Shown here: one piece after another, positions 24,458 to 64,000 of the stretch
Layout: each line of letters starts with the position of its first letter
How positions within the stretch are numbered: position 1 is the stretch's first letter
Assembly: GCA_030390025.1 (NCBI GenBank)
Contig: CM059429.1
Location: 32,736,001-32,800,000, forward strand
DNA: 64,000 bases
DNA from: Squalus acanthias
Lineage: Eukaryota
Direction of reading: 5' to 3'
Made by a program: the position numbers and the translations under genes
Notes under the pieces: generated by a model
The model's database searches: none
What the model was told of the DNA's origin: nothing
The model's input: only the letters and a program-made list of their open reading frames with translations

Positions 24458-24508
24458 TGTCGTTTAATACTTGATGAGAATCATACTTAGCTCTATATCT
24501 TCAATACA

Positions 24509-24644
24509 ATAGCAAAATACTGCAGATGCTGGAAATCTGAAATAACAACAGAAAATGCTGGAAACACTCAGCAGGCCAGGCAGCATCCGTGGAGAGAGAA
24601 ACAGAGTTAACGTTTCAGGTCTGTGACCCTTCGTCAGAACTGGG
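24509..24644 (-). mobile_element. Penelope-like element 3' terminus (family 1), 5'-truncated
   Basis: Near-identical to 34071-34202 and 24921-25044. Imperfect flanking duplication CTTCAAT. Confidence 0.75.
24605..24641 (-). ncRNA. Minimal type I hammerhead ribozyme motif
   Basis: AGUU-CUGACGA-A-GGGUC(ACA)GACCU-GAAA-CG-UU-AACU. Core boxes, helix I (AGUU/AACU), helix II and a palindromic helix III are present. Activity untested. Confidence 0.75.
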
Positions 24645-24920
24645 CTTCAATTCCATTCCTAATCAGATCTTTGTCCAGCTTTATTTTCAACTCATCTCAA
24701 AGTTAAAAGCAGGTTATGGTTAGCCTAATATATGGAGATTTTTTATCATATCATAATAACAGCACTTTTAGTGTGTTTTTCACTGAATTTTTTAATTCAT
24801 ATTTTTGTACTTTTTAGCCCAAGAAATATATGGGAAGCTGTTATTATCAGGGCATCGATAAATTATTGAATTTTTAAAAAATCACTGGTATGTCTCAGTA
24901 TCAAACATGTATCTGTCTCG

Positions 24921-25044
24921 ATAGCAAAATACTGCGGATGCTGGAAATCCGAAATAACAACAGAAAACGCTGGAAAAACTCAGCAGGCCAGGCAGCATCC
25001 GTGGAGAAAGAAAGAGAGTTAACGTTTCAGGTCGATGACCTTTC
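24921..25044 (-). mobile_element. Penelope-like element 3' terminus (family 1) with 12-bp TSD
   Basis: GTATCTGTCTCG at 24909-24920 and 25045-25056. Truncated inside the hammerhead CUGACGA box. Confidence 0.8.
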
Positions 25045-25652
25045 GTATCTGTCTCGCTCTTCTGCTCTATTGAGTGTTTCTTTCAATGAGATTTGGATCA
25101 TCCATGTGGCACCAGCAATATACAGACAAAAATCCAACTTCCATACTAATAATTGTAAGTAACTTTGGAAAACAATACAAAGTCAAAATATATTGAGGTG
25201 TGTTGTATTTATTTTGGAAAAGAACTCAAAAGAGTAGGTAATCACAATTGTTATTTTGGGAATCTGCCACTGACTGACGGTATATTTACTTCTTACAAGA
25301 TTTCTAAAGTTTCTAATGCAATTCTCCCCATCAGCATCTTGCCAGCCTGAAAATGTGCTTTTGTCACATCATTTAAGTAGGCTTCTGATTGGTCTGGTAT
25401 AACAATACTTGACTGTGAAATATCTGCAGATCTTTTGGGGGAAAAATAGTTTCCGAATTCCCCAAAATATTACTCAGTGCTTCAGCAAGTGGCATGGGAC
25501 CGAGTACAAGCCACTATTCATTTAGACTTTGAAACCCGGGTGTTGCAAACCAGCTTAAAAATAGTAACCCCCTCCCTCCCCTGCTGGGAGTTTTCTTTTA
25601 ACAATCTGCTCTGCTTTTCTTGCCACAAAGCCTACAAGAGACAGGAAATAAT

Positions 25653-28316: not shown

Positions 28317-29138
28317 AAATGAGAAGGAATGACTGATACTCAATAATATTGTGATATTCAATGTGTACTGATCGTTTAACAACATCAGAACAAGGCTGGT
28401 ACTGTTTAAAAAGTTGGTATCATAACAGACCTAGTATGTACATGAAGCCTGATTACTTTAGATACTGTGCCATCAATTGAGTATTAGTTTAGTCAACTTG
28501 ATTGACAACTATTAATGTCTTCCATTTTGCTTTAATGAGTGGCTAAACAAATGCATCATTCTTCCAAAGCATATATAACACAATGGGCCAGAAATTCAGC
28601 TCCCTGGCTTCCCGCGGGTGCAAGGATCGCACGCGCACCTACCTACCGCACCTACCGTTGACCTCTGGGCCCACGGGGACTTCGGCTTCTGGGCCTCCTC
28701 CAACTGCCGACGCGCAGTGCTTGTGTATCCCAGGGGCGTAGTTAGTGCGATGCATCCCCTGGGATCATGTGGGCCATGGAGAGCCAATGGTAGCAGACCA
28801 TCTTTCATTCATAGATTTGACAGGACCTGTCAAATCTATGAATACAGATCGGCCCCAAAACATCCCTAAAACTACAAATAATTTTTTTTAAAAACATCAC
28901 ATTTTTAAAATAACTATAAATTACATTAATTAACTATTTTAAACAAAAATTTAAATTTTTGAAAAAATTAATTACATTTTTTAACGGGGCTAAAACTAAA
29001 CTTACCTTTCTTTAAAGTAATTAAAAAAGATAAATCTGTGAAATTTTTTTTTAAATTTTAATAAAATCAACACTTACCTTGTTAAAAGAATGAGAAGTCG
29101 CACAACACCAGGTTATAGTCCAACAGATTTATTTAATT

Positions 29139-29177
29139 TTACAAGCTTTCGAAGCAGTTCGCTCCTTCGTCAGGTAA
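29139..29177 (-). ncRNA. Minimal type I hammerhead motif (mirror copy)
   Basis: Exact reverse complement of 29230-29268. Confidence 0.6.
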
Positions 29178-29229
29178 GTTAGCAGTGAGAGAATCTCCCA
29201 GAATTCTGGGAGATTCTCTCATTGCTAAC

Positions 29230-29268
29230 TTACCTGACGAAGGAGCGAACTGCTTCGAAAGCTTGTAA
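29230..29268 (+). ncRNA. Minimal type I hammerhead motif
   Basis: UUAC-CUGACGA-A-GGAGCG(AAC)UGCUUC-GAAA-GC-UU-GUAA. Helix I is UUAC/GUAA, helix II is 6 bp, helix III is palindromic. Confidence 0.65.
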
Positions 29269-29585
29269 AATTAAATAAATCTGTTGGACTATAACCTGGT
29301 GTTGTGCGACTTCTCATTTTTGTCCACCCCAGTCCAACGCCGGCATCTCCACATCTTCTCCGTGCTTACCTTCATGGAGGAACCTGTAAAAAAACCCGAA
29401 GTGCGAGGCGAACGCGCTGGCCCTCCGGCGTGCGCGTTCGACCTCTGAATCCCTTTCCTCAGGGGAACGGAAGTGCCGGTTTCCCGCGCATGTGCAGTGC
29501 ATGCAAGAAACCGGCACTTTCGTTCTGTCCACGGGTGAGTACACAGTGCGTACTCACCCGACAACAGCCGAATTTCTGCCCCATT

Positions 29586-29751
29586 GGGGGTGAAATTTGT
29601 CTTGGGTGGTTGCACAAAATGGGCGATAGCGAATTGAAAGCCCGTTTGACACCTGTCCGATTTTCTTTTCCATAAGTCAAAGTGCAGGGTGTAAAACAGG
29701 CTGCCGATTAGCTGTCGTCCGTTTTGCAGGACCCAAGACTAATTTAACCCC
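29586..29751. mobile_element. Short fold-back Harbinger-type MITE
   Basis: About 65-bp imperfect inverted arms (GGGGTGAAATTTGTCTTGGGT / ACCCAAGACTAATTTAACCCC). ATT on both flanks. Confidence 0.8.
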
Positions 29752-33946: not shown

Positions 33947-34202
33947 TTGCAACATTTAACCACTCCGGCCTTCCACCCTAGCACAGACCGTTCCTTTTAT
34001 TCTTTCTTCCCCTTCCCCCTCTCCCTGCCTCTGCACCTGCTTAAAACCTGTTACATTTCTAACTTTTTTTCAGTTCTGACGAAGGGTCACAGGCCTGAAA
34101 CGTTAACTCTGTTTCTCTCTCCACGGATGCTGCCTGGCCTGCTGAGTGTTTCCAGCATTTTCTGTTATTTCAGATTTCCAGCATCCGCAGTATTTTGCTA
34201 TT
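33947..34202 (+). mobile_element. Penelope-like element 3' terminus (family 1), longest copy
   Basis: Pyrimidine-rich leader, hammerhead motif, and the tail CAGATTTCCAGCATCCGCAGTATTTTGC shared with the 24.5 and 24.9 kb copies. Confidence 0.75.
34072..34108 (+). ncRNA. Minimal type I hammerhead ribozyme motif
   Basis: AGUU-CUGACGA-A-GGGUC(ACA)GGCCU-GAAA-CG-UU-AACU. Confidence 0.75.
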
Positions 34203-35602
34203 GCATGCTACGGTTATGTATACTTACCAAATTTAGAATTCCAATCTTCGGAAGTGTACAGAAAGCTTACTTTGCCAGTGTTACATCATCGAAAAAGATG
34301 TCGAATTTAAAAACGTCATGAACTGAAAGGGTTAAAATGAATTGGGATCTGCGTTCTCAAACTTCAGAGTTGGGTAGGAAATCCACAAGAACGGGGAGGC
34401 CCATTGAGCATCTTCAGCATTTCAGCAAAACGCCCCAGTAGAACTTTGAAGCATAAGCATGAAAAGGGCACAGTTTAACAAAAGAAACGCCAGTCATATT
34501 TTTTTTTAGAGAGAACTACTGAAAGGTCTCCTTTATGTGCCACCAGAAACGTGGACTTTTTTTTTCTGTCACCCCCCAGGGCTTTCTTGAGGTTTTACAA
34601 GATCAGGAAAAATCCGCCTCATTTCTACTGGTCATTTTGTACAGACGATAATTTCAGTAAAACCACAAATGCCATCAAATCTGTGTGTTAGCTGGGCATG
34701 AAACTGAGCTTTGAATCATTTATTTGTGCAGGAGAAACTGGTGCCAACTCTGTGAATTAATTCAGTAATAAAATAGAAAGTGATGATGAACAGGGAAGCT
34801 CGACTTTGCGTTTTCGACACATGTATCATCAGTGCAATAAAACATTCTTGGCAGTCGGATATCTTTTCAGGGGCTGATGATAAGGAGCGTTACAGAAAAA
34901 TGCTCCAAACAGCATCATTTCACAGACAGGCAAAAATGATGAATTTTCTATAGCTTCAACATGTAACTTCCAAATTCCCTTAAAATGAGGAAACAACTTC
35001 TAGTTTCTGTCTCTTCAAACAGTATTATAGTGAAATGTTAAATTTGAACTCTATATTTGTCTGTAATCTCACATCATCTAACTCTTTGTAAACTGAAAGC
35101 GGCGTTAATGATTGTGTGGGTGCAGCCACTACCATTTCTAATGTGGTTAAACCCTACCAAGAAGATACCATTGTCACACATGTTGGTGTTTATGAGCCCC
35201 TCTGTACTTACGACCACTGCCACTGAGGTGTTTTATGACCTCTAATGTTTAGTAGTTGTCAACGCTATCAAAAGGTTCACAACCTCAATTGACACTCCTC
35301 ATTAATCCTATGCTACAACAAAGATCAGGATTCAGACATAAACTATTTGTGTTTTTATACCGGTAACAGGATTGCTGCAGCATTGCAGATCATTTTCATT
35401 GCTTTATCTTTTGGTGAAACCTCATGACTATAATGGTCCTGTCCATCTGACTGTGTAGCATTGTGACTTTAATGGAGCTGAAATATCTCGTCTACGATGG
35501 TGAAATTCAATGAGATGTTACATTAAAGGACATGTTTGAATTTCAGAATTATAAGTCACAAAAATACAAATACTAAAAATGTTGGCATTGACTTACATTC
35601 AT

Positions 35603-43713: not shown

Positions 43714-44285
43714 GGGGTACAATTGAAATAGGATCAGACGTAGGCTCCGGTTTTAACTGCCCCCACCTAGTTATTTAAACTGGGCAGGGGGGTGGTGGGT
43801 TGGCAGATAAAATAAAGGAATCACTTACCCCCACCGATCCCGCTTTCTTCCCAGCGTGCCCCCATATTAATCTGCTCTTTTTAGTGAGCAGGACACATGC
43901 AGGAAGGAAGTGGAGTCCTGTTTTGCAGATCGGGCCCAATTATGTCATCAGGACCTGATCTGCAATATCAATCTGGGAGCCGGATCCTGAGCCAGAAGAC
44001 ACCCAGAAGGTAAGTTTTAAATTGATTTTTCAGGCTCCTCCTGGCCTCAGAAGGAAGCCTTGGGCCACCCTTGTGCCACCTTTGTGCCACCCTTGGGCCA
44101 CCCTTGGGCCACCCTTGGGCCACCCTTGTGCCACCTTTGTGCCGAGCTACCTCTCCTCCCGACGATTGTGGCAAGACCCCTGACTCTCGATCACGGCCAC
44201 GAACTCTTGCCCCCCCCCCCCCCCCCCCGAAATCACGGCTCCGAACTCTCAGTTTCCCCCCCATCTCGATCGTGACCCTGACCTG
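43714..44285. mobile_element. Harbinger-type MITE fragment
   Basis: Starts GGGGTACAATTG. Contains the palindrome TGCAGATCGGGCC...GGACCTGATCTGCA and the CTCCTCCTGGCC motif shared with the 51.2, 54.3 and 55.8 kb elements. Confidence 0.5.
44058..44145. repeat. 11-bp minisatellite, 8 units
   Basis: Units CCTTGGGCCAC, CCTTGTGCCAC and CTTTGTGCCAC. Confidence 0.9.
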
Positions 44286-51236: not shown

Positions 51237-51928
51237 AGCCTAGATTATGGCCCATTTTCTGATGCGTAACCAGCAGTGCTCAGACAGCACGCACCCCAAC
51301 CGGGAAGCCCGTGGCCAGCAGTGCTCAGACAGCACGCACCCCAACCGGGAAGCCCGTGGCCAGCAGTGCTCAGACAGCACGCACCCCAACCGGGAAGCCC
51401 ATGGCCAGCCCAAAATTGGGCCTCAGCCTCATTAACATTTTCTGGGCGAGCTGCCAACACCTGTCGCACCTCCACAGGCAGCTCGCCTATTTTACATCGA
51501 TGAAATTTGAGCCGCTAGCCACGCTGGCAGAGGCCTGAAGGAAAGTTGCTGGGGTGGGTGGAGCAGCAAAGTGGGGGCGATCGGGATACTATGGAGCCGG
51601 GGATCACTTCTGCTCCTCCTGGCTCCACTGAATTGTTTTTTATTGTTGTTAAAAATGTACCTTTTGATGGTGGCCGCAGTGGCCACTAAAGGATCTGGAG
51701 CAGAGCAGGCCCCACTCCTGCTCCACTCTGCGATGTCAAATATCATTTACATATCTAAGGGACCTGTTTTAGGTGGCTACCAGGGACCTGAACAATGGCC
51801 CGATCCAATATCGGGTCGAATGTCTTTCATGCGTCCTTTGGCCGTGGGACGTTGGTCCCCAAAATTGGCCCTCGTTGCGCCGGTTTTACACCCATAAAAC
51901 GGCTGCAATGAGCTCCAATTTCTAGGCC
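51237..51928. mobile_element. Harbinger-type MITE
   Basis: Imperfect TIRs AGCCTAGATTATGG / CCAATTTCTAGGCC. ATT flanks at 51234-51236 and 51929-51931. Confidence 0.75.
51270..51409. repeat. 45-bp tandem repeat, 3.1 units
   Basis: CCAGCAGTGCTCAGACAGCACGCACCCCAACCGGGAAGCCCRTGG three times, one substitution. Confidence 0.95.
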
Positions 51929-60571: not shown

Positions 60572-61104
60572 TACAGGCAAAAGAAACAGGAAAATAAATA
60601 AAGATACTTAAATTTATGTAATGAGTAGTAGACATTGATTTCAGTGAAGTCTGATAGGACTCCCTATTAAGGTCCTCCTGTCAATATATTGCCTTGTTTC
60701 TAATTGTCTCAAGTTTTGTTCTGTGAAGTACCTGTTACGGATATGATGGGCAAGGAAGAAACAGGCAGATAGTGATTAGACAACAGTAAAGAGAAGCTGT
60801 AAGAGAACTAAAAAGATTAGTGGACTAGTACAGGGAATATTATGATTATACCATCTACTGTAGAAGAGATATGGGGGGCTAAACTGGATAAGGCCTGAAA
60901 ATGGGCGCGGGGATTGCAATGTGCGATCTGCCCGCACTACCAATGCACTGCTGGTTGGCTCAGTGCCCAACAGGGGGCCCAAAATCGTGTGGTGTCTGTT
61001 CTCTATTTAAAGGTTGCCTACATAGTGAAAGGCTGTCTGCACTTCTTAAAGGGGAGGTGCTTTGTGAGAGAAGTACTTCACTGTGACTGAGCTGCAACTT
61101 AGCA

Positions 61105-63012
61105 ATGTCTCAACATGGCAGAGAAAGGGCACCTCGGTTCTCCGATGCAGCACTGGAGGCCTTAGTGCAGGGTGTCTATAGGAGGAGACAGGTCCTCTAC
61201 CTGCAGGAGCACAGGAGACCTTCCAGACACACCATTAGAAGGCAATGGGAGGAGATCTCTGAAGTCGTCAATGACACCAGTCTTTCCCTCAGGACATGGA
61301 TCCAGTACCGGAAGAAATTTAATGACTTCACACAAGTGGTCAAGGTGAGTGAATGCATCTTCAAATGCCATAGCCCACCAACTGCACTACTAGCCTCACA
61401 CACTGCTCAATGCACCACACCCCCATCACTCTTCTACCAACAATCTCTAGCAATCACGACTCATACCTCACAATCATAGCTTCACTTCACCCTCACACAC
61501 TTACCACTGCTGCAAACCTCACATTCACATCTCACACCATGCACACAATGCCAGCTATTCAACCATGATATGCACATCACCCAAACACATTGCACCACAC
61601 TCACTGACACACTTCCCTTTCTCTTGCAGGCCAAGGTGGCTCACAACCGCCGTGAGCGGGAACAAACAGGCGGGGGGGCAGGCACAGCTGCAAAAACCTG
61701 ACCCAGCTGGAGGAGACAGTGCTGGATATAATTGGAGGAGCCGTCACTGAGGCCGTGGCGATCAGCGAGGCTGAAAGCATTGATGATCTCAGTTTGCTCA
61801 TAATCCTTCTTCTCACAACCCACTTCCCCATCATCCCACAATCTCTTCTCACTTACAAGCTGCTGATTGTGTAAGCATGCAAATCTTGCATCCCCCCCCA
61901 CCCCCTCACCGCAATCCGACCCTTGTGCCTTTCTCCTTTCAGATACCCAAGAATTGCCAGCAGCCCAGCCAGTCCACGAACAACTACAGAAAGAGAGTGA
62001 TGGAGAAGAAGAGGAACCGTCACTCGATCTGACACTCCCAGGTACCAGCTCAGAAAATGGCACTGCGCAAACTTTAGAGAATAGTATAGAGGCGGGATCT
62101 GCACGTGGTGAGTCTCCGGGCACAAGTGGGCTGCAGCCAGGCCAGGGGAAAGGGTAGCGTAGGTGCCAGCTCCCCGGAGGACAAGGTCACACATGAGTTT
62201 TGCTGCACACGACTCAGATGAGGACTTTGATGGGGAGACCTTCAGAAGAAGGATGATGGGCATGCACACAGAAATAGGTCTGCCAGAAAGCCTCTTGTCA
62301 CTGTCAAGAAGCATGGAGGGGTCTGTTTCCAACATTGCATGGAGCTTTGTACAGAGCTTGGAGCCCGGAGCCCATGATTTCCAGGATGGAAGTGATGGGA
62401 AACTCCATTAGAACACTTGTGGACTCAACCATGATGCTGGGTGTGATGGGCGATGTCGCAGCTTCCATTGCAACACAAGCGAAAGCGACCCAACGTCTGG
62501 GTGCTGCAGTGGAAGCTCAGACTTCTAACATGCAGGCTCAGCTTGCTGCCACGCAAGATCAGACTTTTGCCATCGTGGCTGGGTTTACGAATGTGGAAAG
62601 GGACTTACAGGATCTCGCAACAGTCCAGTAATCTGTCCTCCAACAGATTACTAGGGATGCTGAGGTGCTGCCCCAGGGAAGTGGCAGTGGCTCCGTGGAG
62701 CAAGAACTCTCTCAGGATGACAGCATTCATACTTCCACCACTGCCACTCCGCCAGTGCCATTGCAGTTGCCTGTCAGCCAGCCAGCCTAGACTGCTGCCA
62801 CTCACACCAAGGTGGTATAGCCTATAGCTGAGCCTTCTCAGCCCAGAGCTGCTCACGGTCGTCCTGCAAGGCCATCTGCAGTCTCCCCCATTGAAAGTCA
62901 GCAGACTATCACCAGCCATACTGCAGCCACTGGGGTAGCACTGCGTAGGAGCACTAGAATAGGCAAAGGGACACGAAAGACAGACACTGAGGGAATGCAC
63001 AAGGGTGATTAG
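61105..63012 (+). pseudogene. Harbinger Myb/SANT-like DNA-binding protein pseudogene (3 exons)
   Basis: Exon 1 61105-61344 (RAPRFSDAALEALV...WEEIS...RTWIQYRKKFND, then GTGAGT). Exon 2 from 61630 (AKVAHNRREREQTGGG..LTQLEETVLDIIG, two +1 homopolymer slips). Exon 3 from 61943 to TAG at 63012 with internal stops and a frameshift. Confidence 0.85.
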
Positions 63013-63181: not shown

Positions 63182-64000
63182 TCAGAGGAACCGGAGTCTG
63201 ATGACGCACTCACGGACAGCCTGTCCAGAATGGGGATTTGCAAGCTGACTCCTCCCTTCCTCCTCCTCCTCCTCCTCCTCTTCCTCCTCCTCCACTTCCT
63301 CTTCCTCCTCCTCCTTCTCCTGAGGTGCCCGTGGAAGCTGTGGTGGCAAGGGCTGCGCCCTCATGATGGCCAAGTTGTGGCACATGCAGCAGACCACCAC
63401 GAAGTGGGACACCAGCTCTGGTGAGTAATCGAGAGCTTCTCCCGAGCGGTCAAGGCAGCGGAACCGTTGCTTGAGCACCCCGATGGTTTGCTTGATGATG
63501 TTCCTCATGGCAGCATGGCTGTCATTATATGATTGTTAGCCACGAGTGGTGGAGTTGCGGAGGGGAGTCATCAGCCCGGTGTAGAGCGAATAGCCCTTGT
63601 TGCTGAGCAGCCAGACTCGGGTTCAACGTGATGGCTGGAAGATTGCTGGCACAGCGGATTGGCGCAAGATTAAAGCATCAGGACTGCTGTCAGGATACCT
63701 GGCATTTACCATCATGATATGCTGGGCGTGGTCGGACACCTACTGCACATTAAAAGAGTGTTAACCTTTGTGGTTACGGTACATCTCAGCATTGATATGC
63801 GGCGCTCGCAAAGCCCCGTGTGTACAGTTGATGGCGCCCTGCACCATGGGGAAGCCTGATATCCTGGCAAAGCCACGTGCGCGCTCCTCCTTCTTCTCTC
63901 TGTTTAGATCTGCTGGCAAAAAAATTCAGGGCCACGGTCACCTTGAGGGCCACTGGCAGAGCCGTCATCGCTCTGCTCTGAGGCTGTAGGTCTGGTTCCA
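63182..64000 (-). pseudogene. Harbinger (HARBI1-like) DDE transposase pseudogene, C-terminal part
   Basis: KVTVALNFFAS...GFPMVQGAINCTH...NHKG*HSFNVQ*...ARYPDSSPDA...WLLSNKGY..LMTP...YNDSHAAMRNIIKQTIGVLKQRFRCL...CCMCHN. At least four stops and an apparent internal deletion. Confidence 0.92.
63247..63321. repeat. (CCT)n microsatellite encoding the poly-Glu tail of the transposase
   Basis: Directly visible. Confidence 0.85.

Follow-up and report, generated by a model that had tools for sequence, protein, structure and literature searches.

The closest described counterparts of the locus analyzed here are the inverted-pLTR insertions of the Pen2a_Av type, which, in the portions of the two reports available to us (PMC3846280, PMC8557442), are likewise head-to-head and 5'-truncated, bear a tail of 30-40 bp on one side and meet at a palindromic junction. 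These insertions are flanked by a short target duplication, as are the sister loci of the present one, and occasionally lose it with microhomology. They differ in the length of the duplication, which is 8-10 bp there and 11-17 bp here, and in that the insertions described below occur as thousands of stumps with both arms of about 120-155 bp and no ORF. Close pairs of hammerheads on opposite strands, 100-700 bp apart, also appear in the accessible part of a survey of metazoan Penelope-like elements (PMC4209133). Hence, the layout as such (inverted repeat, one-sided tail, duplication and palindromic junction) is already known. The formation of an inverted repeat with a one-sided tail is nonetheless left open in the available text of PMC8557442 and PMC3846280, and we found no paper with counts of arm lengths or tails across such insertions in a literature search covering openly accessible main texts.

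Other described systems resemble the locus in its parts. The minimal type I hammerheads reported for metazoan Penelope-like elements in the same portion of PMC4209133 share with those found here a short helix I, an extra base between positions 9 and 10.1, a G10.1-C11.1 pair and a self-complementary loop 3; here, however, helix II has 5 bp, the monomer is predicted to misfold and the two cores lie only 60 bp apart. The Neptune clade, as presented in the consulted sections of PMC8557442, likewise has a single ORF that encodes reverse transcriptase (RT), then a CX5CXXC linker and then a GIY-YIG-type endonuclease; the present element is assigned to this clade by motif. The Anolis Poseidon element PAc (PMC11167929) shows the same two-ended bounds of the tail, AT-rich targets and lack of a pile-up of ends at the ribozyme cut, but it belongs to another clade, and its ribozyme overlaps the ORF start and its tail lies inside the ORF, whereas the present element has its ribozyme about 90 nt before the ORF begins and a tail that runs up to the start codon. 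Finally, non-LTR retrozymes, to judge from the part of their description at hand (10.64898/2026.07.22.740005), are likewise short, non-coding, hammerhead-bearing and derived from Penelope terminal repeats. They form head-to-tail tandems; an identity with them was considered and rejected, the arms here being head-to-head and not tandem units each with its hammerhead. As a consequence of this orientation, one strand cannot form a dimeric ribozyme.

The palindrome and its parts

The window is the whole stretch of DNA analyzed, 64,000 nt of the Squalus acanthias genome (GCA_030390025.1, contig CM059429.1, positions 32,736,001 to 32,800,000), and all positions refer to it. According to the original prediction, 29089-29318 is palindromic around GAA|TTC, with arms of 115 bp and one mismatch (29185 G / 29222 T), and recomputation returned the same coordinates, arm length, centre and mismatch. 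This is the sole palindrome in the window with arms of at least 22 bp. The signals said to lie on both strands were located as well: the hammerhead cores from 29234 (+) and 29173 (-), AATAAA at 29274 (+) and 29128 (-), and the antisense CAG|GTAAGT, as CAGGTAAGT, at 29171 (+) and 29228 (-). The tail assigned to the right arm only is indeed one-sided, but it measures 34 nt (29322-29355) instead of about 37 nt, and the span of 29081..29362 given to the feature has to be narrowed: set against the empty site described below, the element occupies approximately 29089-29355, and 29081-29088 and 29356-29362 are host DNA. The element comprises the following features.

29089..29203, minus strand: tail-less inverted terminal-repeat arm, covering the element from position -33 to about +88 relative to the hammerhead core (window copy, locus L035); its initial AA is common to element and target
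29139..29177, minus strand: mirror copy of the hammerhead motif
29171..29179, plus strand (mirror at 29228-29236, minus strand): CAG|GTAAGT, resembling a splice donor and antisense to helix I and the start of the core
29201..29206, no strand: GAATTC arm junction, a self-complementary 6-bp word that the element itself contains; 6-bp overlap
29204..29321, plus strand: direct terminal-repeat arm
29230..29268, plus strand: minimal type I hammerhead motif, predicted cut after 29264
29274..29279, plus strand (mirror at 29128-29133, minus strand): AATAAA in the terminal repeat, candidate poly(A) signal, also found in the sister family
29322..29355, plus strand: tail of 34 nt, corresponding to the sequence directly upstream of the element's ORF start codon; its final ATC is common to element and target

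Each arm reads, in order, TTAC-CTGACGA-A-GGAGC-loop-GCTTC-GAAA-GC-TT-GTAA, followed by AATAAA. The native context of the junction in the element is TTGT-GAATTC-TGGG, and the centre of the palindrome is thus the element's own self-complementary word, at which the arms meet with zero spacer. The window copy is 98-99% identical to the parent element, and its tail falls a few bases short of those in sister copies. A pyrimidine run at 29310-29332 (+) ends inside the tail in CAG at 29332 and looks acceptor-like by eye; paired with the donor-like antisense site at 29174 it would, again by eye, frame an intron of 159 nt on the plus strand only.

The parent element

Long copies elsewhere in the genome reveal the parent as a 3,025-bp unit in partial tandem. 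In two of them (L041 and L162) a truncated direct copy accompanies a full unit, forming pseudo-LTRs, with a period of 3,025 bp in L041. Reverse transcriptase (RVT_1) was matched in three of the four ORF frames scanned (E-values of 7e-9 to 4e-6). In the single ORF P0001, DKG, YIDD, a CX5CXXC linker (CHGNLCKTC) and a VVY-YIG endonuclease motif can be made out by eye, so ordered that RT is followed by the linker and this by the GIY-YIG-type endonuclease; a Pfam search of the ORF gave no GIY-YIG match, and a search of PDB sequences gave no match. The ORF stops about 225 bp upstream of the hammerhead, which in turn lies about 90 nt upstream of an ORF start, and the tail ends at the ATG of the next ORF. 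Two parent copies are 99% identical in protein, which indicates that the family is young.

Judged by these motifs, the parent is an endonuclease-bearing Penelope-like element, in which an ORF for RT and a putative C-terminal GIY-YIG domain is joined to the terminal repeat. The Penelope-like origin proposed for the palindrome, and the link of its arm to a Penelope RT/GIY-YIG ORF elsewhere in the genome, are hence borne out by the long copies with their RVT_1 and VVY-YIG matches. The designation of the element as Neptune-type is suggested by the linker motif (clade criterion CX2-5CXXC), which is shared with Nematis; in the part of PMC8557442 available, a linker of the CX5CXXC type marks either Neptune or Nematis.

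The host repeat and the target site

The palindrome lies inside another dispersed repeat, one 26-base word of which has 843 exact copies in the genome.

28581..29586, no strand: mapped part of the host dispersed repeat holding the stump, with inverted ends of 21 bp (28581-28601 and 29566-29586)
29073..29080, plus strand: CTTACCTT, copy 1, native to the host repeat
29079..29090, plus strand: TTGTTAAAAGAA, the real target word; its right-hand copy is absent here, along with 27 bp of target
29365..29372, plus strand: CTTACCTT, copy 2, native to the host repeat

The two CTTACCTT words, preceded by CA on one side and TG on the other, had been read as a target duplication with decay of a CpG, and an automatic duplication finder also called them, as a false 8-mer. 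The right-hand flank word recurs at 19 loci, 16 of which are empty sites, and these rule out both calls: 15 of the 16 already hold both words with their CA and TG prefixes, and the remaining one (L062) has one substitution. Against the empty site, the window insertion lacks 27 bp of host target. Other insertions at the identical host position duplicate TGTTAAAA(G) in 9 of 11 independent loci (12 were fetched, L218-L229, with L221 and L222 as duplicates of each other). On the evidence of these alignments, the window copy either lost its target duplication or never formed it. The host word followed by this element group at this position (29079-29090) gave 22 matches, and no insertion at this position was seen among the first 30 host copies listed; going by these sequence matches, the position is a target hot spot.

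Abundance of head-to-head insertions

Copies were counted by exact patterns over the 3.7-Gb genome. There are 2,048 exact copies of the 32-base hammerhead core and 11,552 of the 31 bases that follow it, and the genome-wide count of the palindromic architecture that accompanied the original prediction as a possible check amounts to 5,120 loci with head-to-head hammerhead cores at most 70 bp apart, the window's and sister families included. Spacing between cores ranges from 5 to 64 bases in the first 50 loci listed, and up to kilobases in pairs listed by hand. In 31 of those first 50 close pairs at most 20 bases separate the cores and in 4 more than 40, compared with 60 in the window copy; most short stumps end at the 5' edge of the hammerhead, and the window copy falls in the long tail of spacings.

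The window's family was represented by 65 pairs, listed by hand from loci fetched with exact patterns, mostly on one contig, with duplicates removed; single-arm loci exist and were left out of the pair count. Exactly one arm is tailed in all 65 pairs, which, together with the identity of the arm, bears out the inverted, tail-less copy of the original prediction. Target sequence of 11-17 bp (mode 12-14) is duplicated in 59 of the 65, as against 26 of 2,072 mismatched flank pairs, and the window copy is among the six pairs that lack such a duplication. In the window copy and like stumps the arms are reduced to about 120-155 bp, and consequently no ORF remains. The palindrome is therefore an ordinary, 5'-truncated head-to-head insertion like thousands of others in this genome. 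A single such locus carries little weight, but a young and abundant family allows counts that can separate priming from both target strands from self-priming.

Formation of the head-to-head arms

We consider it probable that a Neptune-type element inserted here head to head and with severe 5' truncation, its tail-less and tailed terminal repeats, joined at GAATTC, having been made by reverse transcription primed from both strands of the cut target. The endonuclease would cut the target with a stagger of about 12-13 nt, and each 3' end of the target would then prime cDNA on RNA of the element, with one start at the far boundary of the tail and the other at the near boundary. Both new strands would stop, anneal by a few complementary bases and be filled in; should both stop at a self-complementary word, zero spacer would result. 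The terminal repeat of the parent brought the ribozyme and AATAAA along as passengers, and the donor is a chance antisense reading.

Several observations support this reading. Both arms can be read as antisense strands that extend inward from the two ends of the target, each end with the duplicated word, and this suggests the geometry of priming from both strands of a staggered cut. Among 53 pairs whose selection did not depend on the centre, 16 have a tail-less arm that exceeds the tailed one by more than 30 nt and 11 show the opposite; the arms overlap at the junction by 1-9 bases in 30. In the sister family, the two arms agree at the subfamily site in 28 of 28 pairs (14.7 when shuffled), and yet a one-base insertion (A or C) in loop II separates otherwise agreeing arms in 8 of 30 (L084, L089, L094, L173, L176, L178, L180 and L184). 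Recurrent loop II differences combined with subfamily concordance are what would be expected of two separate copying events. Ten sister pairs are discordant in length, of which two (L085 and L175) are not loop II indels; the comparison of arms left out one locus of the window's own family (L039) and three of the sister family (L086, L177 and L179), in which no arm could be parsed, as well as two further pairs per family. A precedent comes from the Anolis element, for which both strands were cut and extended in vitro from two start sites bounding the tail (PMC11167929).

Other observations weigh against double priming or are at least neutral. The positions of the 5' ends correlate strongly between the arms (Spearman 0.64), lying within 30 nt of each other in 26 of the 53 pairs as compared with 7.2 after shuffling. 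Perfect palindromes recur at two native self-complementary words, GAATTC and AAGCTT, as a fold-back would likewise predict. In the window's family, helix II is concordant between arms in 52 of 55 pairs, many of which were selected by an exact match; taken by itself, this family thus cannot demonstrate separate copying. At the present locus the expected duplication is absent. The correlated ends, the palindromes at native words and the concordant arms fit two copies of one RNA, or joint stopping, and also fit self-priming in a symmetric subset.

Self-priming is the foremost alternative. It starts from the same element and the same ordinary insertion, but has a strand end at GAATTC, fold upon itself and be copied back, and junction palindromes are interpreted in this way by Arkhipova et al. 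2013, in the portion of the paper available to us (PMC3846280). The correlated arm lengths and the centres at native palindromic words speak for it. A folded strand, however, should make one type of arm always the longer, and both types occur (16/53 and 11/53); the tail cannot be gained by copying a tail-less strand; and loop II differences recur between arms in 8 of the 30 sister pairs. We thus regard self-priming as an unlikely general explanation, although the symmetric subset, the window copy included, may still have arisen in this way. Overall, the copy statistics speak more for reverse transcription primed on both strands of the target than for self-priming as published.

A preferred zone for the 5' ends of the arms is the 25 nt ahead of the hammerhead core, where 19 of 91 arms at risk end (0.91 per 100 nt, compared with 0.20-0.40 in neighbouring bins), and one guess is that the RNA starts in these 25 nt. 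Cleaved RNA as the template was considered and discarded, since only one of 100 arms starts at the predicted cut site. The palindrome pattern centred on AAGCTT, beside the cut, gave 18 matches (3 inspected), which is not above the 20 loci with the exact 24-base GAATTC centre, though the two patterns differ in length. Taken together, the stumps may well record the insertion chemistry of Penelope-like elements, with a dimeric enzyme, a stagger of 12-13 nt, always one strand primed per end of the tail, the same or a sibling transcript as template, and run-off mostly immediately 5' of the hammerhead, at a likely RNA start; we give this fuller scheme about an even chance. If true, it would settle the origin of the inverted repeat and its tail, against antisense self-priming, and would make loop II of the ribozyme a copying-error hot spot, which would explain the noted variability of the motif.

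That the 230-bp palindrome might be a non-autonomous element moving as a unit is suggested by the identical 24-base centre at 20 loci, but this is very improbable. The ten centre-sharing loci inspected have different flanks and different tail-less ends, and they carry several subfamily variants that are mostly matched within each locus; furthermore, centres in the family are widely spread, with 5-64 bases in 50 listed loci and up to kilobases, and there are no retrozyme-like tandem units.

The hammerhead motif

The motif has a helix I of 4 bp, an extra A after position 9, a helix II of 5 bp and a self-complementary AAGCUU in place of helix III. The core elements CUGANGA / GAAA / UH, the extra base after 9, G10.1-C11.1 and the self-complementary loop 3 are all present. 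A descriptor of the minimal hammerhead gave 274 matches of 64 variants in the window and the fetched loci, the latter selected because they contain the motif, whereas three shuffled versions of this DNA gave 0; A-NN-T is self-complementary in 61 of the 64 variants. An Rfam search returned 8 matches at E-values of at most 10, with no hammerhead family among them. Among 25 variants, 7 of the 9 pairs of helices I and II are altered on both sides, and 97.8% of cells are paired, in rows that were picked by a descriptor demanding pairing and that come from about three families. This choice of rows favours the structure, and the pattern supports, without proving, selection that keeps both helices by compensatory change. 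A second minimal hammerhead family of distinct sequence, with all four helix I pairs changed, is seen at 34072-34108 (+), in a repeat at about 34071-34206, and at 24605-24641 (-), in a repeat at about 24504-25046.

Folding predictions divide these variants. In a single arm of the window variant (GCTTC), helix II has a pairing probability of 0.09-0.11 and a wrong register is favoured, as compared with 0.98-1.0 in six GCTCC variants; at 29238-29257, the GCTTC helix II would let the catalytic core pair in the wrong register. When two arms are co-folded, AAGCUU is predicted to pair between them and helix II is again misregistered in the window variant. The GCTTC form, for which misfolding is predicted, is the one with 2,048 exact copies, which suggests that easy folding of the ribozyme is not needed for spread. 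In the available part of PMC4209133, single minimal hammerheads show no cleavage in vitro.

Read-through RNA and the cassette reading

The original prediction interpreted the locus as an orientation-independent RNA-processing cassette, in which transcripts from either side would meet a donor, a ribozyme and a poly(A) signal, or fold into a Dicer/ADAR hairpin. The signals do follow in that order on both strands, and the hairpin is predicted to be very stable. The order, however, is produced automatically by mirroring, and the symmetry is a by-product of insertion at thousands of loci. Of the two folds proposed for read-through RNA, the 115-bp hairpin is upheld by the predictions (-217 kcal/mol) and the hammerhead is not, both hammerhead helices having a pairing probability of 0.0. 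RNA prefixes that end inside or just past the second ribozyme are already zipped in the predictions, so the upstream antisense arm is predicted to capture the ribozyme during synthesis and to leave both ribozymes locked in the hairpin.

Further points count against a host cassette. To helices at 0.0 in the palindromic RNA and a helix II at 0.09-0.11 in one arm is added the lack of in vitro cleavage by single minimal hammerheads (PMC4209133, in the part cited above). The copy is 98-99% identical to its parent and sits inside another repeat, and the acceptor-like tail is on one arm only. The donor, which is the reverse complement of helix I and CUG, differs between subfamilies: GTAAGT is found in 168 fetched arms and GTGAAG, GTAGGG, GTAGAG and others in the rest, in a sample biased to the window's own family. 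None of the 63 open frames of at least 90 aa in the window has a host gene domain. A GT..AG joint near the 5' region or the tail acceptor was sought in three presumed-RNA contig sets and none was seen, nor was a 68-nt sense intron running from the cut-site GT to the tail CAG, a candidate we set aside; these sets cover the element, but contigs carry no strand or level information and cannot show absence. We therefore hold a cassette maintained for the host to be highly improbable. Thousands of long perfect hairpins in one genome are, on the other hand, a possible load for RNA editing or silencing.

A fold-back artefact of sequencing or assembly is extremely improbable, even though no bridging piece is among those listed in four DNA contig sets (contigs, not raw reads) over the left junction and centre, and no public contig is listed as bridging the junctions of the locus, because the tail is one-sided, the arm mismatch falls at a family-variable site, an empty site is known and thousands of like loci have target duplications.

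Other features of the window

Two fragments with a Myb/SANT-like DNA-binding domain and DDE_Tnp_4, respectively, face each other at 61087-61476 (+) and 63185-63535 (-), and are presumably the remnant of a Harbinger-type DNA transposon. Short tandem arrays with units of 11 bp and 45 bp are found at 44047-44154 and 51265-51409.
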